This document shows, piece by piece, positions 28,040 through 54,208 of a stretch of 64,000 nucleotides of DNA (positions within the stretch are counted from its first letter, which is position 1; the number at the start of each line of letters is the position of its first letter). Where the stretch lies: NCBI GenBank assembly GCA_035548835.1, contig DASZSB010000168.1, positions 21,192 through 85,191 of the forward strand. The letters are read 5' to 3'. Made by a program: the position numbers and the translations under genes. The notes under the pieces were generated by a model. That model made no database searches and was not told the origin of the DNA. It was given only the letters and a program-made list of their open reading frames with translations. This DNA is from Gammaproteobacteria bacterium. Its GTDB lineage: Bacteria; Pseudomonadota; Gammaproteobacteria; Steroidobacterales; Rariloculaceae.

Positions 28040-29077
28040 ATGAGACGGGTGTCGTGGGGAACTTGTGCGGCGGCCGCGGTCGTCGCGGCCGCTCTCGGCG
28101 CGCAGGCGCAGACGTCGGCGCCCATTCAGGCGAGCGACGTGCCGCAGCGCAAGAAGGTGGCGCCTCTGCCGCCGCGCGGCACCTACGTGCCGCCGAAGAC
28201 CTCGTGGGGCGACCCCGCGATCGCCGGCGCGTACAACAACAGCGACGAGAGCGGCATTCCGTTCGAGCGGCCGGCCGAGTACGCGGGTCGTACGCTCGAC
28301 AGCTTCACGCCGGAGGAGCTCGCGAAGATCACGAGGCAGCGCCAGGAGCAGACCATCGAGCGCAATCCGACGCTGTCCGAGTTTCCGGGCGCCACGAGCC
28401 CGATGCACTGGTTCGAGAACTACTTCGCGGCCAACAGCCGGGCGTGGCTCGTCTCCGATCCGCCGGACGGCAAGGTGCCCGAGCTGACGGACGAGGCGCG
28501 GCAGCGGGCGGCGGCACGCGAGGAGGCTCGCAAGGGACGCGGACCGGCGGATTCCTACACGGATCGCAGCCTGTACGACCGCTGCATCACGCGCGGCGTG
28601 CCGGGCTCGATGATGCCGGCCATCTACGGCAACTCGTATCAGATCATGCAGAGCCCCGACGCGGTGACCATCACGTACGAGATGATCCACGACACACGGG
28701 TGATCCCGCTCGACGGCCGGCCGCACGTCGCGCCCGCGATACGCCAGTACCTGGGTGACGCGCGCGGTCACTGGGAGGGCAACACGCTGGTCGTCGAGAC
28801 CACGAATTTCAACGACAGGGTGCCGTTCCGCGGCTCGAGCCAGGAGCTCAAGCTCATCGAGCGCTTCACGCCGCTCGGCCCGGACACGCTCGAATGGTCG
28901 GTAACCTTCGACGATCCGCACACCTGGGCGCGGCCGTGGACGTTCGCCATGAACCTCACGCACGACGAATCGCAGCCGCTGTTCGAGTACGCCTGCCACG
29001 AGGGCAACTACGGCCTGCGCAACATGTTGTCGGCTGCGCGCGCCGAGGAAGCGGCCGCGCAGAAGAAGGGCAAGTAG
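28040..29077 (+). CDS. Secreted protein of uncharacterised family A (full length, 345 aa)
   Basis: Signal peptide. 'SWGDP', 'DRSLYDRCITRGVPGSM', 'ITYEMIHDTRVIPLDGRPH', 'GHWEGNTLVVETTNFN', 'LIERF' and 'FEYACHEGNYGLRNML' are shared almost block-for-block with 51939..52937. Confidence 0.85.
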   Translation: MRRVSWGTCAAAAVVAAALGAQAQTSAPIQASDVPQRKKVAPLPPRGTYVPPKTSWGDPAIAGAYNNSDESGIPFERPAEYAGRTLDSFTPEELAKITRQRQEQTIERNPTLSEFPGATSPMHWFENYFAANSRAWLVSDPPDGKVPELTDEARQRAAAREEARKGRGPADSYTDRSLYDRCITRGVPGSMMPAIYGNSYQIMQSPDAVTITYEMIHDTRVIPLDGRPHVAPAIRQYLGDARGHWEGNTLVVETTNFNDRVPFRGSSQELKLIERFTPLGPDTLEWSVTFDDPHTWARPWTFAMNLTHDESQPLFEYACHEGNYGLRNMLSAARAEEAAAQKKGK

Positions 29078-44072: not shown

Positions 44073-45218
44073 ATGACGCCCTTGAAGATCGTGCGCGGGC
44101 TCGCGATTGCCGGCACGCTGACGCTGGTTGCGGGCTCGCCGGCGCTCGCGCACCACGGCTTCGGGCTGTTCCAGATGGAGAAGCTCGCCGACTGGTCCGG
44201 CACGCTCACGAAGTTCGAGCTCGTGAATCCGCACTCGTATCTGTACTTCGACACCGTCGGCGCCGACGGTAAACCGCTGTCGATGCGCTGCGAGATGCGT
44301 GCGGCCACGTTGATCAAGCGCTCGGGCTGGAAGACGGAGGAGTTCGTTCCGGGCCGGCACGTCGACATCCACGGCCATCCGCATCGCGACGATCCCCACT
44401 CGTGCTACCTCGAGAGCGTCACGATCGGCGGCAAGACGTCGATCGATCGCAACGATCAGTTCACGCGCGCACCGGTCGACACTTCGAAGCGGCCGCTGCG
44501 ACTGGCGTCGGGCGAGCCGAACATCTCGGGCGACTGGGCCGTGGAGCAGGCCGTGCTGACGATTCCGCCGAGCGGCGGGCGCGGGGATCTCGTGCCGCGC
44601 AGCGTCCGCGAAGCGTACGCCGCGGGCAAGATCACGCTGGCCGAGATCCGTGCGCGCAATCCGGCGCCATCGAAGCCGCAATACACGCCGGCGGGTCAGG
44701 CGGCCGCGACGGCGTTCCGCATGTGGTCGCCGGAGGACAATCCGCGACTCTCCTGCAAGCCGACGAGCATCATCTTCGACTGGACGTTCGACTGGCCGGT
44801 CAATCGCATCACGCAGACCACCGTGAACGGCGAGAAGGTCATCGACATCGATTACGGCCTGTACAGCAACACGCGGCGCATCCACTTGGGTCTGGACAAG
44901 CATCCGTCGGGACTCGTGCCGAGCAACGCGGGCCATTCGATCGGCCGCTGGGACGGCGACACGCTGGTCGTCGATACCGTGGGCTTCACGGCGGGCGTGC
45001 TCGTGCCGCCGACGAAGAGCAGCGACAAGCTGCACGTCGTCGAGCGCTTCACGTTCGATCCGAAGACGTTCTCGCTGAAGCGCGAGTACACGGTCGAGGA
45101 CCCCGTGTACCTGGCGGCGCCGTACACGGGGCAGGACACGGTGCTGCTGTCGGACACGCCGTTCGAGAAGCAGCGCTGCTCGGAGCTGACGTACGAGTTC
45201 ACGCAGCCCGGCAACTGA
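44073..45218 (+). CDS. Secreted fusion protein: DUF6152-like N-terminal domain (family B) + family A C-terminal domain (copy 1)
   Basis: Signal peptide ending ALA, then HHGFG (His codons 44151-44156). '[11 protein letters not shown]...MRCEMRAAT...GHPHRDDP' matches 51492..51935. The C-terminal '[10 protein letters not shown]...NRITQT...RRIHLG..HP...[19 protein letters not shown]...LHVVERF' matches family A. About 60% identical by eye to 53090..54208. Confidence 0.8.
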
Positions 45219-45294: not shown

Positions 45295-47343
45295 ATGAGC
45301 CGGTTCAGGCATTTCCTGGTGCTCGCCGTGGCGAGCGTCGTCGCGTTGCAGTGGGCAGCTTCTGCACACGCCTACACGGCCGAGCAGGCTACGGCGGGGC
45401 GCGCCGCGTTCCAGGACGCCTGCGCGATGTGCCACGGCGCCAACCTGCGCAACCTGCCGAACGCCATTCTGGCGGCACCGGAGTTCGGCGCGCGCTGGAC
45501 GGGTCGCACGACCGCCGACCTGCTCCAGCAACTGAAGGCCACGATGCCGCCCGAGGCTCCCGGCAGCCTGCCGGAGGCCAGCTACCTTGGCATCATCTCG
45601 TTCCTGCTGCAGACCAATGGCTTTGCAGCGAACACGACGCCGCTGACCGCGGCCACGTCGGCGGTCATCGGCAGCGACGCGCTCGCGCCGGCGCGCCCGG
45701 CCGCCGAGCCTGTCGGCGTGACGGTGGCCGGCACCGTTCGCGACTTCGTGCCGCTGACCGAGCAGGCGCTGCGGAATCCCTCCGCCGGCGACTGGCCCAT
45801 GCTGCGCCGCGACTATGGCGCCTCGAGCTACAGCCCGCTGAAGGACGTCACGGCCGCGAACGCGCACCGCCTTACGCTCGCGTGGATCTGGCCGATGCGC
45901 GACGGCGGCACGAACGAGCCGTCGCCGCTCGCGTACCGCGGCACGGTCTACCTCAACAACACGCAGGGCATCGTGCAGGCCATCGACGGTCGCGATGGCT
46001 CGCTGATCTGGGAGCATCACGTCAAGGACACGGTCGCGAGCCGCGGCATGGCGCTCTACGACGACAAGCTGTTCCTGCAGGCCAATGGGCACCTGATCGC
46101 GCTGAACGCGCGCAATGGCGAGACGGTGTGGGACGTGCAGATGCCCGACGGCCACGCGAGCAGCAGCGGCCCGCTCGTCGCAAGCGGGCTCGTGATCCAG
46201 GGCATGGGCGCCTGCCAGACATACGAGCCGCTGAAGTGCTTCATCAGCGCGTACGACGCGAAGACGGGCGAGCAGAAGTGGCGCTTCCAGACGATCGCGA
46301 CCAGCGATCAGCCGGGCGGCAACACGTGGGGAAACCTGCCCGACCTCTATCGCGCCGGCGGGGAGACCTGGATCACCGGCAGCTACGACCCCGATCTCGG
46401 CCTCACGTACTGGGGCACGGCCCAGGCGAAGCCCTGGATGCCCGCGAGCCGCGGCATGGGCAGCCTGGATGCCGGGCTCTACACGAGCTCCACGGTCGCG
46501 CTCGACGTGCGCACCGGCAAGCTGGCATGGCACTACCAGCACGCGCCGGGCGAGGCGCTGGACCTCGACGTGGTGTTCGAGCGCGTGCTGGCCGACGGCG
46601 GCGGCCGCAAGTGGGTGCTGACCGTGGGCAAGGACGGCGTGCTGTGGAAGCTCGACCGGCGCACGGGCGAGTATCTCGATCACGCGGAAACTCTGTTCCA
46701 GAACGTCTGGGCGAGCTTCGATCGCGAGACGGGCCAGCCGCGTTATCGCGACGACATCCTGGCGCACAAGGTGAGCGACTGGATAGATGGCTGCCCGAGT
46801 TCGGAAGGCGGCCACAACTGGCAGGCCACGAGCTTCCACAAGCCGTCGCGCACGCTGCTGATTCCGCTGTCGCAGAGCTGCATCGCGATCCGCGCGCAGG
46901 CCATCGAGCAGAAGCCCGGCGGCGGCAACGCGGGTGGTGCCGACCGGCGCTTCTATGCGATGCCGGGCACGAATGGCAACATCGGCAAGCTCGCGGCGTT
47001 CGACATCGACACCATGAAGGAGAAGTGGTCGCTGCAGCAGCGGGCCGCGATCCTGACGGCCGCGTTGTCGACGGCCGGCGGCCTCGTGTTCATCGGCGAT
47101 CTCGATCGCAGCTTCAAGGCCATCGACGTGCGCGACGGCAAGGTGGTCTGGCAGACGCGGCTCGCGACCTCGGTACAGGGCTTTCCGATCTCGTTCGAGG
47201 CGGGCGGCAAGCAGTACATCGCGGTGACGACGGGTTTGGGCGGCGGCAGTCCGCGGCTCGTGCCGAATCTGCTGTCGCCGGAAGTTCAGCCGCCGGGGCG
47301 CGGCCAGGCCCTGTACGTGTTTGCGTTGCCGGACGAGCGTTGA
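45295..47343 (+). CDS. Periplasmic quinohaemoprotein-type dehydrogenase: N-terminal cytochrome c domain + PQQ beta-propeller (copy 2)
   Basis: Signal peptide [31 protein letters not shown] at 45421-45435. It carries the same PQQ-propeller blocks as copy 1, and '[10 protein letters not shown]' at 46561-46569 encodes D-L-D. Confidence 0.9.
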
Positions 47344-50023: not shown

Positions 50024-50875
50024 CTACTGCATTTCGGTGATGATGCCGTCGAGCCCGAGGTTGAACATGAAGCCGCTCCAGTGGAACTCGGTCTCGAGCA
50101 CCTTCTTGATCTCGTCGCGCGACTTCTTCGCCCGGTTCATGTCGCGCACCATGTCCTGAAGGCGGATCGTCTCCTTCAGATACCCTTCCATGTTTGCCCG
50201 ATCCGTCACGCCGCTGTGGCCCGGGATCACGGTATCGAAGTCGAGGCGCAGCGCACGCTCGAGCGACCGCGACCAGTCGCGGATGCTGCCGCCGGCCGCG
50301 TAGTGGATCAGGTGCATGTACGGGCCCCAGAGCGCGAACAGGTCGCCCATGATGACGACCTTCTCGGTCGGCAGGTGGATCACGATGTCGCCGTCGGTGT
50401 GACCGCGGCCGAAGTAGTACAGGTCGATCGGCAGCTTGCCGAGATAGATCCGCAGGTAGTCCCGCATCGCGAAGTTCGGCAGGCCCGGCGCTGCGGTCTC
50501 GACCATGATGCGCCGCGCGTTCTCCGAGGCGATGACCTGCGCGCCGAGCGCCTGCAGGGCCTGGTTGCCGCCCGTGTGATCGGCGTGCAGATGAGTGTTG
50601 ATCACGTACTTCACGGGCTTGTCGGTGATCGTCTTCAGCTGCGCCATCACGCCGTCATGCTCGTTCGCGAACTTCGCGTCGATCAGCGCGACGCTGTCGT
50701 CGCCGACGAGCACCGTGATGTTGCCGGACGCTGCGCTGCGAATCACGTAGATGTTGTCGCGAACCTTCGTGGTCGCGAGCGCGGCCGGCGCGAATCCGCC
50801 CTGGGCGTGCGCGGTCGGGGCGAGGGCGAAGGACGTCAGCAGCGCCGCTGCAACGACCATGGATCGGATCATCAT
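50024..50875 (-). CDS. Secreted MBL-fold metallo-hydrolase
   Basis: Signal peptide. 'VINTHLHADHTGGN' (HxHxDH), 'GRGHTDGD', 'IMGDLF', 'IPGHS'. Confidence 0.85.
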   Translation of the reverse strand: MMIRSMVVAAALLTSFALAPTAHAQGGFAPAALATTKVRDNIYVIRSAASGNITVLVGDDSVALIDAKFANEHDGVMAQLKTITDKPVKYVINTHLHADHTGGNQALQALGAQVIASENARRIMVETAAPGLPNFAMRDYLRIYLGKLPIDLYYFGRGHTDGDIVIHLPTEKVVIMGDLFALWGPYMHLIHYAAGGSIRDWSRSLERALRLDFDTVIPGHSGVTDRANMEGYLKETIRLQDMVRDMNRAKKSRDEIKKVLETEFHWSGFMFNLGLDGIITEMQ

Positions 50876-50903: not shown

Positions 50904-51476
50904 TCATGGTGCCGGCTCGATGCGCAGCAACGCGCCGGCCGTTTCGTCGGTCAATACGTACAGGAAGCCGTCGGGGCCCTGGCGCACGTCGCGCAGACGC
51001 TGTCCGAGCTCCGTCAGCAGCTTTTCCTGGGCGCCCGGCTTGCGCGCGCCGTCGAAGTCGATCCGCACGAGCGAGCGCGTCATGGTCGCCATGAAGAGAT
51101 CGCCGCGCCACGCGGGGAACCGACGGCCTGCGTAGAACGCAATGTTGCCGGGATTGATCGACGGCACCCAGTAGAGCACCGGATCGACCATGCCCGGCAC
51201 GTTCTCCGCGCCGCGCACGACGGGATCGCCGTTGTAGTGCTGGCCGTGCGTCGCCAGGATCCAGCCGTAGTTCTTGCCGGCTTCGATCCGGTTCAGCTCG
51301 TCCCCGCCGCGCGGTCCGAATTCCGTCGACCAGATCTCGCCGGTCGCCGGGTGCACGGTGAGGCCCGTGGGATTGCGATGGCCGAGGGTGTAGATCTCCG
51401 GCCGGAAGCCGTCCTTGCCGACGAACGGGTTGTTCCTCGGAATCGAGCCGTCGTCGCGGAGGAACCGGACCGGCAC
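50904..51476 (-). pseudogene. 3' fragment of a PQQ-dependent sugar (glucose/sorbosone) dehydrogenase gene; the N-terminal half is missing
   Basis: The 190 aa 'NPFVGKDGFRPEIYTLGHRNPTGL..HP.TGEIW.TEFGPRGGDELN.I..GKNYGW' plus the terminal 'DGFLYVLTD' correspond to roughly the last half of the ~370-aa six-bladed enzymes. There is no ATG (the ORF opens with an internal GTG), and the upstream gene's stop lies 16 nt away at 51492. Confidence 0.6.
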
Positions 51477-51491: not shown

Positions 51492-51935
51492 CTACTGCGA
51501 CTCGGCCGGCTCGCTGCTGTCACCGGGCGCACCGGTGCCGGCCGAGCCCATGAACAAACGCGAGCCGTCAGGCAGGATCAGGTCGCGGCCGTTCGCACGG
51601 TTCGCACCGTTCTTGGCGCGATAGCCCTCGATCGTGATCTCGGTGCCGGGCTTCACGGCATCGCGCGTGTAGCCGCGCCGGAGCAGCGTGTTCGGCGTGG
51701 CTCCCTCGATCATCCATTCCGTCGTGGTGCCGTCGGGGTTCTTCACGGCGACGTGCAGCCAGCTGTGGGGGTTGATCCATTCCATGCGCACGATCTTGCC
51801 GTGCAGCGTGACGGGCTTGCTCGCGTCGAACTCGGCGGAGAACGAGTGATGCGCCGCGGCCGGTGGCACGATCCCGCCCAGACTCGCGGCGATGGCGAGG
51901 GGTAACAGGCAACGACGCGTTCTCATGCCGGACAC
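51492..51935 (-). CDS. DUF6152-like small secreted protein (family B, stand-alone)
   Basis: Signal peptide ending PAAA, then HHSFSAEFD (His codons 51846-51851). 'VTLHGKIVRMEWINPHSWLHV', 'EWMIEGATPNTLLRRG', 'GTEITIEGYRAKNG'. The start lies 3 nt after the stop of 51939..52937. Confidence 0.8.
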   Translation of the reverse strand: MSGMRTRRCLLPLAIAASLGGIVPPAAAHHSFSAEFDASKPVTLHGKIVRMEWINPHSWLHVAVKNPDGTTTEWMIEGATPNTLLRRGYTRDAVKPGTEITIEGYRAKNGANRANGRDLILPDGSRLFMGSAGTGAPGDSSEPAESQ

Positions 51936-51938
51936 CTC

Positions 51939-52937
51939 TCAACGCTTGTGCGCAGCCGCGGCGCGTTCCTCGTCGCGCGCGTTCTGCAGGATGTTGCGCA
52001 GACCATAGTTGCCTTCGTGGCACGCATACTCGTACAGCTCGCCGTCCGCGGGCCGCATCGAGTAGGCCACGGTCCAGGGCTGCGTCCACTGCGTGTCGTC
52101 CTCGAGCGTCAGGCGGAAGTCGATCTTGTCGTCGGCCGTGCGCCGATAGCGCTCCGTGAGCTTCAGGTTCGCGCCCGCGCCGCGAAACGGCGCTTTGCCG
52201 TTGAAGTTGCGGGACTCGACGACCAGCGTGTCGCCTTCCCAGTGCCCGCGCGATTCGCCGAGATAGCTGCGCACGCCGGTGAACGGGGAGCCGTCGAGCG
52301 GCACCACGCGCGTCTCGTGAATCATCTCGTGCACGATGGCCACGTAGCCCGGCGCCTGTGTGATGCGGATGTTGTTGTTGTACAGAGTCGGCAGGATCGT
52401 GGCCGGCAGCCCGCGCGTGATGCAACGCTCGTACAGCGGCCGGTCGCGATAGGAGTCCACCCTGCCGCCGGGCGGTGCACCGGCGGCCGCCGCGCGTGCC
52501 GCCTCCTGGCGCGCCTGGGCTTCGGGCGTCAGCGGCGGAATGCGCCCGGTCTTGGGCTCGACGATCAGCGACGTGCGATGCGCGTCGTCGAGGCGCCGGC
52601 CGGGGTCGGTCAGATACTCGGCGTGCACAAAGCCGCTGGCGGGCGCGTTGGGGTCCGGCGGCTTGTCCATGCGCCGAGCCGCACGACCCTCGAGCTCCGC
52701 GACCTCCTGCTCGGTGTAGAACTCGCGATCACCGAACTCCGGCCGCCGCTCGAGCGGTGTGATGGTGCGGTAGTCCCAGACGCCCTGCAGATCCGGATCG
52801 CCCCATGACGTCCGCGCTGCGGATGCGGCCGGCGGCTGCGGTGCGGCCGCCGCCGCGGATTGGGCAGGAACGTCACGAGAGAACGACCACGTTGCCGCGA
52901 GCAGTACGGCGGCCGGTGTCAGAACTCGGGCCCGCAT
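51939..52937 (-). CDS. Secreted protein of uncharacterised family A (332 aa)
   Basis: Signal peptide. 'SWGDPDLQGVW', 'DRPLYERCITRGLPATI', 'IVHEMIHETRVVPLDGSP', 'GHWEGDTLVVESRNFN', 'LTERY', 'YEYACHEGNYGLRNIL'. Confidence 0.85.
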   Translation of the reverse strand: MRARVLTPAAVLLAATWSFSRDVPAQSAAAAAPQPPAASAARTSWGDPDLQGVWDYRTITPLERRPEFGDREFYTEQEVAELEGRAARRMDKPPDPNAPASGFVHAEYLTDPGRRLDDAHRTSLIVEPKTGRIPPLTPEAQARQEAARAAAAGAPPGGRVDSYRDRPLYERCITRGLPATILPTLYNNNIRITQAPGYVAIVHEMIHETRVVPLDGSPFTGVRSYLGESRGHWEGDTLVVESRNFNGKAPFRGAGANLKLTERYRRTADDKIDFRLTLEDDTQWTQPWTVAYSMRPADGELYEYACHEGNYGLRNILQNARDEERAAAAHKR

Positions 52938-53089: not shown

Positions 53090-54208
53090 ATGAAACGTTG
53101 GGCCATCGCCCTGGCGGCGTTGACGGTGACGAGCGCTGCGCTCGCGCACCACGGTTTCGGCAACATCGATGCCACGAAAAACGTGACGCTCGAGGGTACG
53201 CTGACCGGCATCGACTTCGTGAATCCGCACGCCTACCTGTATTTCGACTCGGTGGGTGCGGATGGGAAGACGCTCAAGATGCGCTGCGAGATGCGCGCGG
53301 CCACCGTGTTGCGCCGCTCCGGGTGGTCGCCCGAGATGTTCGTTCCCGGCAAGCACGTCACGGTGAACGGCCATCCGAATCGCGCGGATCCCGCCTCGTG
53401 CTACGTCGAGGACCTGAAGATCGGCGATGCGCCGACGCTGGTTCGTTATCAGCAGCTCACGAGCAACGCGGGTGCGGCCAACGCGAATCGTCCGTTGCGC
53501 CGCCCGAGCGGCGAGCCGAACATCTCCGGCGACTGGGCGCAGGAGCAGTATCTGCTGGCCAAGCTGCCGAAGGGCCCCGGTGCGCTCGTGCCGAAGAGCA
53601 TGCTCGCGGCCGTCGAGGCCGGCACGGTGGCCGTCGCCGACGTGCCGAGCAACGGCTGGGCCGCGCGACCCGTGACATACACCGCCGCGGGACAGGCCGC
53701 TTCCGACGCGCTTAAGAAGGCGCGCCCGGACGACAATCCGCGGGCGCGGTGCGAGATCACGAGCGTGCTGTTCGACTGGGTCTTCGACGGCCCGATCAAT
53801 CGCATCACGCAGGACGCGGACACCATCACGATCGAGTACGGCCGCGGGCTGAAGCGCACGGTCTATATGAAGCAGGCGTCGCACCCGGCGGGCATCAAGC
53901 CGACGCGCGGCGGCCATTCGATCGGCAAGTGGGAGGGCGACACGCTCGTGGTCGACACGGTGGGCTTCGCGCCGGGCAGCCTGGCCGGGACCGTGCCGAA
54001 CAGCGACAAGCTGCACATCGTGGAGCGGTTCACGCTCGATACGAAGACGTTGGCGCTGCACCGTGACTATGTGGCCGAGGATCCGGTGTACTTCGCGAGC
54101 AAGTACACCGGCAGCGATACCGTGCTGCCCGCCGACGCCCCGTTTGCGGCGGACGAGTGCAAGGAGCTGACGTACCGCAACTACTCGCAGGAGACCCAGA
54201 AGAAGTAG
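53090..54208 (+). CDS. Secreted fusion protein: family B (DUF6152-like) N-terminal domain + family A C-terminal domain (copy 2)
   Basis: ATG at 53090 follows GGAG. Signal peptide ending ALA, then HHGFG (His codons 53147-53152). '[30 protein letters not shown]', 'NPRARCEITS...NRITQD...[19 protein letters not shown]...LHIVERF'. Confidence 0.8.
   Translation: MKRWAIALAALTVTSAALAHHGFGNIDATKNVTLEGTLTGIDFVNPHAYLYFDSVGADGKTLKMRCEMRAATVLRRSGWSPEMFVPGKHVTVNGHPNRADPASCYVEDLKIGDAPTLVRYQQLTSNAGAANANRPLRRPSGEPNISGDWAQEQYLLAKLPKGPGALVPKSMLAAVEAGTVAVADVPSNGWAARPVTYTAAGQAASDALKKARPDDNPRARCEITSVLFDWVFDGPINRITQDADTITIEYGRGLKRTVYMKQASHPAGIKPTRGGHSIGKWEGDTLVVDTVGFAPGSLAGTVPNSDKLHIVERFTLDTKTLALHRDYVAEDPVYFASKYTGSDTVLPADAPFAADECKELTYRNYSQETQKK

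Follow-up and report, generated by a model that had tools for sequence, protein, structure and literature searches.

The DNA analysed here, referred to as the window, is a 64,000-nucleotide stretch of a Rariloculaceae genome (Gammaproteobacteria; GCA_035548835.1, contig DASZSB010000168.1, positions 21,192 to 85,191 of the forward strand). It contains three genes for proteins with a DUF6152 domain (Pfam PF19649, an entry with no recorded function). One of them encodes a stand-alone domain, and the other two encode proteins in which DUF6152 is fused to a second domain, here called the partner (Table 1). The Pfam scan returned PF19649 as the sole family for these DUF6152 proteins, with E-values of 4.9e-34 (116.8 bits) for the stand-alone protein, 1.3e-16 (60.9 bits, residues 20-106) for the 381-residue fused protein, and 1.9e-20 (73.2 bits) for the 372-residue one; the gathering cut-off of the family is 27 bits. 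The initial annotation started the stand-alone gene at GTG 51935, but ATG 51926 is the likelier start, because a GAGG found by direct reading of the sequence lies 8 nt upstream of it and the homologue P0001 begins at the matching position.

A separate partner gene lies upstream of the stand-alone DUF6152 gene. The TGA stop of this partner gene, 3 nt ahead of GTG 51935, overlaps the DUF6152 ribosome-binding site. The partner gene product and the C-terminal part of the fused proteins are homologues (E 2e-7), and the partner HMM matches residues 124-355 of the 381-residue protein (E 2.2e-38) as well as the 372-residue protein (E 2e-32). Two genes for PQQ-type enzymes adjoin the DUF6152 genes. The glucose/sorbosone dehydrogenase (GSDH) product covers only positions 153-332 of PF07995, and the PQQ dehydrogenase matches PF01011 (E 3e-58) and PF13442 (E 5.8e-8). 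In the related locus L021, a full 425-aa GSDH gene stands in place of the half gene; the partner-DUF6152-GSDH order is kept there, as is the order of the fused gene followed by the PQQ/cytochrome c dehydrogenase.

Table 1 Features of the window, with positions counted from its first nucleotide.
Feature	Position	Strand	Length	Remarks
Stand-alone DUF6152 gene (PF19649)	51492..51935	minus	147 aa	if GTG 51935 is used
Same gene, likelier start	ATG 51926	minus	144 aa	mature chain ~119 aa
Sec-type signal peptide	51852..51926	minus		positive n-region, hydrophobic core, AxA; ends A-A-A (signal peptidase I site)
Predicted mature His1-His2	51846..51851	minus		codons CAT CAC, directly after GCC GCG GCG (A-A-A)
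N-P-H block	51765..51773	minus		mature His29, codon 51765-51767
Fused DUF6152 + partner	44073..45218	plus	381 aa	HH at 44151-44156; NPH histidine is mature His28, codon 44232-44234
Second fused DUF6152 + partner	53090..54208	plus	372 aa	HH at 53147-53152; NPH histidine is mature His28, codon 53228-53230
Partner gene	51939..52937	minus	332 aa	own signal peptide; partner HMM E 3.3e-105
PQQ-type glucose/sorbosone dehydrogenase, C-terminal half	50904..51476	minus		directly downstream of the stand-alone DUF6152 gene
PQQ dehydrogenase with N-terminal cytochrome c domain	45295..47343	plus		directly downstream of the fused gene 44073-45218

Export and conservation of the histidine motif

The codons confirm that two histidines directly follow an A-x-A in all three window genes, exactly at the coordinates in Table 1, and that the later conserved histidine is that of the NPH block, both of which had been claimed in the initial annotation. 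The 4.35-Mb genome as a whole carries 70 DUF6152 paralogues above the PF19649 cut-off in an HMM search. DUF6152 and the partner, counted together, are its largest protein family. We note that 70 copies per genome would be odd for a metal-trafficking role.

The predicted cleavage site was judged by the simple (-3,-1) rule on the sequences of the 70 paralogues. A cut directly before the two histidines is permitted in 70/70 copies, with Ala at -1 in each of them and a small residue at -3 in 69; the next-best offset, +5, is permitted in 63 copies, and all other offsets in 51 or fewer. The earlier prediction of cleavage at this site is thereby upheld: signal peptidase I is predicted to cleave after the conserved A-x-A, leaving a mature chain that starts with His1-His2. 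At the sequence level, the proteins are predicted to have histidine as mature residue 1, as in LPMO, CopC and X325, where this feature marks membership. The start positions of the DUF6152 domains cluster at 18-40 residues from the beginning of the proteins. We examined and dismissed two other export routes. Cys at +1 is absent from every copy, and a lipobox-like string occurs upstream in only 2/70, which speaks against lipoproteins; a twin-arginine-like string occurs in only 6/70 copies, which speaks against Tat export.

All 70 paralogues have HH at +1/+2, Ser, Gly or Ala at +3, and a further histidine at +28/29. The last of these is read as NPH in 59 copies and as SPH, ANH, PNH, GPH or PSH in the rest. 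In an alignment of 68 paralogues (A2), which are 18-61% identical with a mean column identity of 24%, the columns of H1, H2 and H29 are the only invariant ones, and His2 is as invariant as His1. The conservation extends across the DUF6152 family, which comprises 14,248 clusters at 50% identity. The motif is kept in 133 of the 150 representatives inspected, and all but two of the 17 without it are fragments or miscalled genes. In the two exceptions Asn or Ser replaces His1 and His2 is retained; both look degenerate, one having a frameshifted tail and the other a partner deletion. The motif is also present in all 85 readable DUF6152 domains from 80 other genomes (Gammaproteobacteria and Acidobacteriota) and in 16/16 distant single-copy relatives. 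Histidine is the first mature residue in 2.6% of the secreted proteins in the SignalP 6.0 training set (PMC12537917), and the His-His/His pattern is far beyond chance.

Fold of DUF6152 and comparison with known systems

The AF2 model of the stand-alone protein (mean pLDDT 88.2) has an OB-fold topology of beta1-beta2-beta3-helix-beta4-beta5, with His29 at the end of the beta1-beta2 loop (L12). Among the top 50 Foldseek PDB matches of this model there are only OB-fold proteins (LysRS, SSB, PriB, RPA); LPMO and CopC are absent. The fused protein 44073..45218 is modelled with a mean pLDDT of 90.8 and a pTM of 0.87. In both models, confidence is lowest over the first ten residues (mean pLDDT 80 and 70). 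Coevolution analysis of 303 non-redundant sequences (mean-field DCA, zero-sum gauge, gap state excluded) recovers the strand ladders of the OB-fold. Residues 7-10 couple to the beta4-beta5 loop (78-81) and to W31, which is two residues past His29, at ranks 15-42 of 4465 pairs, and the N-terminal tip therefore appears to emerge beside the NPH loop. The couplings 1-28 and 2-28 connect invariant columns and were disregarded as invariance artefacts.

Profile searches of the PDB gave 0 matches at E <= 1 with the DUF6152 family and no match with the fused family, and none of the four proteins searched matched an NCBIfam entry. A likeness to the NanoLuc/LgBiT fusion tag in a single-protein PDB search (E ~0.004) is gone when the family profile is used and is regarded as chance. 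Because DUF6152 is modelled as an OB-fold and shows no sequence or structural relation to LPMO, CopC or PmoD-type proteins in Pfam, PDB and Foldseek searches, it falls outside the known histidine-brace families, with which the initial annotation had compared its His1.

The resemblance to these copper proteins (LPMOs AA9-AA17, CopC, X325/Bim1 and the PmoB CuB site; PMC10952591) lies in other features, namely export, a His1 exposed by leader cleavage (predicted in the case of DUF6152) and a further invariant His downstream. In LPMOs, PQQ or cytochrome partners act as reductants (PMC5960967, PMC8981238), and DUF6152 modules adjoin PQQ/cytochrome c dehydrogenases. However, histidine-brace proteins are Ig-like or cupredoxin-like beta-sandwiches, whereas DUF6152 has an OB-fold, an extra invariant His2, a separate barrel partner and tens of paralogues per genome. 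The invariance of His2 is not accounted for by a classical brace.

The "signal strapping" families DUF4198, DUF6702, Ang-1 and Ang-2 also have a conserved His1 after the leader and are periplasmic (PMC12537917; PMC12663993); DUF4198 is linked to Ni, and Zcp binds Zn (PMC12537917; PMC12663993). DUF6152 is not named in PMC12537917, and the Pfam scan gives it no membership in DUF4198, DUF6702 or Ang-1/2. A link to a small membrane protein may be a further parallel, HupE/UreJ being attached or adjacent in part of the signal-strapped families and DUF6644 lying beside part of the DUF6152 genes. The signal-strapped families are beta-sandwiches present in one or few copies, in contrast to the OB-fold, the His-His start and the soluble barrel partner of DUF6152.

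CusF, a periplasmic OB-fold chaperone for Cu(I)/Ag(I), has an internal His/Met/Met/Trp site. DUF6152 resembles it as a small periplasmic OB-fold, and metal on the barrel face is a feature of CusF. No conserved Met or Trp ligand set of the CusF type is found in alignment A2, and there is no Pfam CusF match. The literature searched makes no mention of DUF6152 or DUF6644, and mentions DUF2214 in passing only; relative to it, the His triad, the OB-fold, the partner domain and the links to PQQ enzymes and DUF6644 are new.

Partner domain and genomic neighbourhood

The partner matched nothing in sequence searches of Pfam, NCBIfam and the PDB. Its C-terminal ~120 residues are modelled as a multi-stranded antiparallel barrel, and Foldseek with the fused model returns CRABP/FABP-like barrels besides OB-fold proteins. 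The best non-OB matches of the partner (CRABP2, FABP5/7 and SAHS) are weak, with E-values of 3e-3 to 8e-2 and TM of ~0.45-0.5. The likeness to the iLBPs/calycins FABP, CRABP and SAHS is therefore a weak one of barrels, and the partner differs from them in being exported, in being about twice as long, and in its conserved disulfide pair C172/C306. Glu262 and Asp280 of the partner are invariant and Arg210 is near-invariant.

In 74 of the 80 related loci, which were collected with a single protein as query, the partner lies upstream of DUF6152 on the same strand. Unfused pairs occur in either order, 24 partner-first and 16 DUF6152-first. DUF6152 comes first in all 15 fusions of the genome and in 27/27 fused representatives, and the fusions stem from at least three independent fusion or fission events. 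Three true tandem proteins contain an internal second domain that lacks either HH or the NPH histidine. The DUF6152-first fusions and the triad loss in internal copies are consistent with the predicted mature chain requiring its N-terminus to be free. The distance matrices of DUF6152 and the partner correlate with r = 0.56, a value reached in 0 of 5000 permutations; judged by this correlation, the two are cognate, co-diverging pairs.

The periplasmic redox neighbourhood proposed in the initial annotation is borne out in this genome. Genes within 3 kb of a module include 36% of the 44 PQQ dehydrogenase genes (p = 1.4e-5) and 44% of the 18 GSDH genes (p = 4e-4), compared with 11% of other genes in each case. 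This PQQ enrichment could mirror a general clustering of periplasmic catabolic genes. PQQ dehydrogenases are found in 15/80 related loci. GSDH is found in 3/80 and is rejected as a general neighbour, its link being limited to the closest relatives and this genome. CxxCH proteins and PepSY-like membrane proteins recur in the related loci.

A second type of neighbour is DUF6644. In a minimal, distant single-copy subfamily (A/HHGW), a DUF6644-like 4-TM protein with an invariant His is encoded directly beside the DUF6152 gene in 15 of 17 loci and is the only conserved neighbour. In this genome, 6 of the 9 DUF6644 genes are within ~2.5 kb of a DUF6152 gene, and 24/80 related loci contain one. The idea that this protein is CopD-like is unsupported, as hhalign gave a probability of 0.08 for a 12-sequence alignment against the genome's own CopD, used as a single-sequence template.

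A candidate metal site and its alternatives

These observations suggest that DUF6152 may be an exported OB-fold domain, matured by signal peptidase I to a His1-His2 start, in which His1, His2, probably the free alpha-amino group, and His29 would form a site for a single transition-metal ion. Such a site would occupy the face of the OB barrel that usually binds ligands. We regard a candidate metal site of the three histidines at the free N-terminus as slightly favoured. Four other exported families, regardless of fold, chelate Cu, Ni or Co through a free N-terminal His (PMC12537917). Copper as the metal is a tentative choice with the chances against it: no Met-rich motif and no copper-homeostasis neighbour was found in or around DUF6152, and nothing specific favours copper over Ni, Zn, Co or Fe. 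A true T-shaped histidine brace is somewhat more doubtful still. To our knowledge, the OB-fold is a scaffold that has not been seen to carry a histidine brace.

Together with the partner domain of ~250-300 residues, DUF6152 makes up a two-part periplasmic module; the C-terminal part of the partner resembles a barrel of the fatty-acid-binding-protein type, which presumably holds a small molecule. In the mechanism we prefer, the site would be a redox-active centre, with copper as first choice, that would exchange electrons with the adjacently encoded PQQ dehydrogenases and act on the molecule held in the partner barrel; the large paralogue sets would mirror substrate diversity. A PQQ pyranose dehydrogenase is known to reduce histidine-brace LPMOs (PMC5960967), and priming by PQQ or cytochrome c dehydrogenases would resemble the priming of fungal LPMOs by this enzyme. 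Dozens of co-diverging pairs per genome may likewise be compared with the repertoires of P450s or ring-hydroxylating oxygenases. Taken to its full extent, this reading describes a new class of two-part periplasmic metalloenzymes, in which an OB-fold, histidine-brace-like Cu centre, primed by PQQ or cytochrome c dehydrogenases, would oxidise small hydrophobic or aromatic molecules held in the calycin-like barrel and the pairs would form a substrate-specific repertoire. We consider this full version speculative and, as a whole, quite unlikely.

The same histidines may instead serve metal capture and hand-off without catalysis, the tip handing Cu, Ni, Zn or Co over to either DUF6644 or the partner in an "anglerase"-like or CopC/YcnI-like manner. 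The flexible, low-pLDDT tip would suit a capture arm, and the DUF6644 gene occurs beside the A/HHGW genes, near DUF6152 in this genome and in the related loci at the frequencies given above; Ang-1, Ang-2 and CopC also join an N-terminal-His domain to a permease (PMC12537917). However, most genome copies lack a DUF6644 neighbour, neither a metal-responsive regulator nor a transporter was seen in the vicinity, and DUF6644 has no relation to CopD detectable by hhalign with a single-sequence template. Unlike metal homeostasis systems, moreover, the 70 paralogues in 4.35 Mb each co-diverge with their own barrel. We hold this role to be unlikely, albeit the least so of the alternatives. Another reading has the three histidines bind without the alpha-amino group, as in a Zn hydrolase-type site, a non-haem Fe(II) 3-His site or axial haem ligation, for which the OB-fold haem chaperone CcmE is a model; the proximity of the cleavage site would then be incidental. 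Exactly three invariant His with nothing else invariant is the classical count of 3-His Zn/Fe sites, Glu262, Asp280 and Arg210 of the partner could complete an active site, and the recurrent CxxCH and PepSY-like membrane proteins are compatible with this reading. It leaves unexplained why the His are always exactly at +1/+2 of A-x-A, why DUF6152 is first in every fusion and why the triad is partly lost in internal tandem copies, and we regard it as distinctly improbable.

It is also conceivable that no metal is involved, and that the His-His tip and His29 act as a pH-sensitive latch, as a general acid/base, or as a plug docking into the partner barrel or the PQQ enzyme. The tip is flexible in the models while the domain arrangement of the fused model is fixed (by its pTM), the pairs co-diverge, and metal-related neighbours were not seen. 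Yet strict three-His invariance across ~14,000 clusters, including members without a partner, is far more characteristic of metal ligands than of docking contacts, and in a periplasm that is oxidising and contains metal, Cu(II) or Ni(II) would bind to a free N-terminal His anyway, as argued in PMC12537917. A metal-free role is very improbable in our view. The slimmest chance is given to cleavage elsewhere, for example after HHS-F-A/S, which would remove the histidines or leave them away from the N-terminus. The (-3,-1) rule is also satisfied at this +5 offset in most copies, but offset 0 fits every copy, each with Ala at -1, and there is no reason for discarded leader residues to be invariant; such a cut would imply a c-region of unusual length and charge, and the clustering of the domain starts also argues against it.

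Processed N-terminal His metal sites underlie LPMOs as well as bacterial copper and nickel trafficking, and families that contain them are actively sought (PMC12537917). The triad of DUF6152 looks like an undescribed candidate metal-binding site of this type on a small barrel fold. With its 14,248 clusters the family is far larger than the N-terminal-His families described so far, from which it also differs in its fold, its stricter motif and the ligand-type barrel dedicated to it. Its members abound in uncultured soil Gammaproteobacteria and Acidobacteriota with a wealth of periplasmic PQQ dehydrogenases. If a redox metal is bound, the histidine brace would not be tied to beta-sandwich folds, and the DUF6152 modules would represent a layer of oxidative metabolism in the periplasm of major soil lineages that has so far gone unrecognised.

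Invariant histidines of the DUF6152 family

All three DUF6152 proteins of the window match Pfam PF19649 (E 4.9e-34, 1.3e-16 and 1.9e-20) and none matches NCBIfam; they are members of this Pfam family and of no other described family, and DUF6152 is not mentioned in the literature searched. The start of the small gene is likely ATG 51926, since GAGG lies eight nucleotides upstream, overlapping the TGA stop of the partner gene, and since P0001, the nearest homologue at 93% identity, has the same start. The initial annotation placed His-His directly after a predicted A-x-A signal-peptidase site in all three domains, and this is confirmed by the CAT CAC codons of the small gene and by both plus-strand genes.

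Features of the window discussed in the text (partner HMM E values where obtained)
Feature	Position	Strand	Details
Small DUF6152 gene	51492-51935	-	Product MSGMRTRRCLLPLAIAASLGGIVPPAAA then HHSFSAEFD...INPHSW...; predicted cleavage directly before HH
His-His codons CAT CAC	51851-51846	-	Immediately 3' of GCC GCG GCG
Fused DUF6152 gene	44073-45218	+	...SPALA then HHGFG...VNPHSY; partner HMM 2.2e-38
Fused DUF6152 gene	53090-54208	+	...SAALA then HHGFG...VNPHAY; partner HMM 2e-32
Partner gene	51939-52937	-	332 aa, own leader; ends 3 nt before small DUF6152 gene; partner HMM 3.3e-105
GSDH, C-terminal half only	50904-51476	-	PF07995 positions 153-332
Metallo-beta-lactamase gene	50024-50875		
Partner-domain gene without own DUF6152	~28040-29074	+	Partner HMM 8.5e-104
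Partner-domain gene without own DUF6152	41895-~43360	-	Partner HMM 1e-13; divergent from the cupin and fused-gene cluster

In the assembly (4.35 Mb, 97% complete), 70 DUF6152 matches exceed the Pfam cut-off. Around the predicted cleavage site, all 70 carry Ala at -1, His-His at +1/+2 and Ser, Gly or Ala at +3, followed by His at +28 or +29; the residue at -3 is small in 69. When 68 mature paralogue domains are aligned (18-61% identical to the window protein; mean column identity 24%), the histidines H1, H2 and H29 are the sole invariant columns. A profile search of 1.84 billion representatives gave 14,248 clusters at E <= 0.001, and the full motif is found in 133 of the best 150. Truncation at the N-terminus or miscalling accounts for fifteen of the 17 without it; the remaining two, with Asn-His or Ser-His in place of His-His, look degenerate, since the tail of one is frameshifted and the partner part of the other has lost a large segment. 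Among 87 domains from 80 related loci of named genomes (uncultured Gammaproteobacteria and many Acidobacteriota of the Vicinamibacterales and Bryobacterales, at 53-68% identity), 85 start with HH, after Ala (82) or Gly (3), and a frame break and a hit in the wrong frame account for the two others. In an even sample of the phylum, DUF6152 is present in 26 of 301 genomes, mostly as one distant copy, and all 16 distant copies readable in frame keep an HHGW start after Ala and an xPH. The His-His...His motif is the defining feature of the DUF6152 family, and the conservation of His1, His2 and the NPH histidine, which the initial annotation saw in the three window domains, holds family-wide.

Modelled OB-fold

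An AlphaFold2 model from the 68-paralogue alignment (mean pLDDT 88.2, pTM 0.78) contains a short N-terminal turn, beta1, beta2, beta3, a helix, beta4 and beta5, and predicts that the DUF6152 domain is an OB-fold. Foldseek against the PDB returned OB-fold proteins only (lysyl-tRNA synthetase anticodon domain, SSB, PriB and RPA; E >= 1e-3, TM about 0.45-0.6), with no LPMO, CopC or cupredoxin among the matches, and no PDB sequence matches the window protein or the family profile. Mean-field coevolution on 303 non-redundant sequences recovered the beta1-beta2, beta2-beta3, beta1-beta4 and beta3-beta5 ladders, which supports the model independently. A homologue 80% identical (P0100) bears the JGI record name 'DNA/RNA endonuclease YhcR with UshA esterase domain', probably an automatic match to the YhcR OB-fold, in agreement with the predicted fold. 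The initial annotation had suggested a possible histidine-brace-type metal site; by this model and these searches, DUF6152 has neither the fold nor the homology of any histidine-brace or N-terminal-His metalloprotein family, and appears from its sequence to share with them only the principle that cleavage of the leader exposes a chelating His.

In the model, His29 is located at the end of the beta1-beta2 loop. Residues 7-10 are coupled by coevolution to the beta4-beta5 loop (78-81) and to Trp31 (ranks 15-42 of 4465 pairs), which places the exit of the chain from the barrel beside the NPH loop, on the face where OB-folds classically bind ligands. Such an exit is compatible with a shared putative His1/His2/His29 site. 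Confidence is lowest over the first ten residues, both in this model (mean pLDDT 80) and in the fused-protein model (70).

Predicted barrel partner and redox neighbourhood

The partner, an unnamed domain with a predicted barrel, matches neither Pfam nor NCBIfam in the case of the 332-residue protein, which is homologous to the C-terminal part of both fused proteins. An iterative search found 97 partner-domain ORFs in the genome. Fifteen of the 70 DUF6152 copies are fused to a partner (14 by frame test plus the window gene 53090-54208, a fusion mislabelled by that test), 40 have one within 600 nt on the same strand and five on the opposite strand, and seven have none on their own contig, these contigs often being short. 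Counted together, DUF6152 and the partner are the genome's largest protein family, with 115 linked genes. Distances between DUF6152 copies correlate with those between their partners (r = 0.56, a value reached in none of 5000 permutations; r = 0.58 when only unfused pairs are taken). In 23 of 53 pairs the nearest paralogue is the same for both members, so that whole modules duplicate and diverge together. Apart from OB-folds, the fused-protein model (pLDDT 90.8, pTM 0.87) has weak Foldseek matches to CRABP2, FABP5/7 and SAHS barrels (E 3e-3 to 8e-2). The invariants of 27 full-length partner paralogues are a Cys pair (C172/C306), Glu262, Asp280, two Pro, Gly and Val, with no invariant His, so all candidate histidine ligands would come from DUF6152.

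The closest relatives outside Gammaproteobacteria are Acidobacteriota (among loci L044-L123; Vicinamibacterales, Bryobacterales and Terriglobia), all uncultured MAGs. They carry the same partner-DUF6152 operon at 53-68% identity, which suggests its transfer between phyla.

Downstream of the small DUF6152 gene come the C-terminal half of a PQQ-type glucose/sorbosone dehydrogenase (GSDH), a metallo-beta-lactamase-fold gene and a methyltransferase gene; the GSDH fragment shares its reading frame with the DUF6152 gene, and a single TAG separates the two. Upstream of the fused gene at 44073 is a cupin gene, and downstream of it are genes for a PQQ/cytochrome c dehydrogenase, a VOC protein and a DUF1554 protein. 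The whole arrangement is kept in a relative (L021, 77% identity), where a full 425-residue GSDH lies 15 nt after the DUF6152 gene; the metallo-beta-lactamase gene is absent at the corresponding place. Within its 4.35 Mb, the genome has 44 PQQ dehydrogenase (PF01011) and 18 GSDH (PF07995) genes, which is unusually many for periplasmic quinoproteins. The redox neighbours listed in the initial annotation (cyt c/PQQ, cupin, VOC) are thus present, and genome-wide a DUF6152 or partner domain is found no more than 3 kb from 36% of PQQ dehydrogenase genes and 44% of GSDH genes, compared with 11% of other genes (odds ratios 4.5, p = 1.4e-5, and 6.3, p = 4e-4).

A cluster-based scan of flanking genes returned these two families again, plus DUF6644 membrane proteins, and no further large family stood out. 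Across the 80 related loci, the genes that recur nearby encode DUF6644 (24 loci), PQQ dehydrogenases (15), an unnamed membrane protein (14) and a 182-residue protein ending in CxxCH (10); GSDH occurs in only three. This 182-residue exported protein (L073:1234-1782 and nine other loci) has a single C-terminal CxxCH, adjoins DUF6644/DUF6152 modules in Acidobacteriota and has no Pfam match; it could be a c-type cytochrome that is still unclassified.

The distant single-copy HHGW subfamily (L025-L039, 17 loci of other Pseudomonadota) has one conserved neighbour only, a DUF6644-like four-helix membrane protein (15 of 17 loci) with invariant Tyr, His, Arg, Lys, Ser, Trp and Arg, and the HHGW copy of the window's own genome (G000:C40:15153-15976) likewise has one. 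The branch signature is A/HHGW...GNPH...YDxYPDR (slash, predicted cleavage), and the DUF6644-like gene after DUF6152 makes a conserved two-gene unit without the partner domain. No relation of DUF6644 to CopD was detected.

Predicted exposed N-terminus and candidate metal site

The plain (-3,-1) rule permits cleavage immediately before His-His in all 70 copies. The next best offset, +5, is permitted in 63 and the remaining ones in at most 51. The sequence by itself leaves room for cleavage at +5, which would throw away invariant residues. Lipoprotein identity is ruled out, as none of the 70 copies has Cys at +1. Mature chains begin with His in only 2.6% of secreted proteins (PMC12537917). Unfused pairs occur in both gene orders (24 partner-first, 16 DUF6152-first); DUF6152 comes first in all fused proteins (15/15 in the genome, 27/27 among representatives), and the fused state changed independently at least three times on the tree. 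The starts of first domains cluster between residues 18 and 40, a distance that matches one leader. In the three true tandem DUF6152-DUF6152 representatives, the internal second domain is always short of part of the triad (P0125 without HH, P0195 with FPNAT instead of NPH, P0198 with KPRS). Fusion order, leader-length starts and triad loss in tandems are evidence, read from sequences, that a free N-terminus would matter for DUF6152. We note that the canonical CopC of the genome (L042:271-1872, G000:C93), followed by CopD, matures to AAA/HTPLES with an N-terminal His; it serves well as a positive control, from within the genome, for this cleavage logic.

With cleavage before His-His, the three histidines and the alpha-amine would be candidate ligands of one transition-metal ion. 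An N-terminal X-His chelates Cu(II) well in peptides such as Gly-His-Lys, which would explain the invariance of His2. We infer binding of such an ion from the invariance pattern, the N-terminus dependence and the demonstrated metal behaviour of four other exported families with conserved His1 (PMC12537917). Copper is ranked first among the candidate metals because of this X-His chelation and because of the periplasmic redox-enzyme neighbours, a PQQ pyranose dehydrogenase being a known reductant of histidine-brace LPMOs (PMC5960967). The main rival reading, kept in play by the DUF6644 link in the minimal subfamily, is a capture-and-hand-off role for DUF6152. The large co-diverging paralogue sets speak for a substrate-specific function of the DUF6152 proteins and against metal homeostasis.
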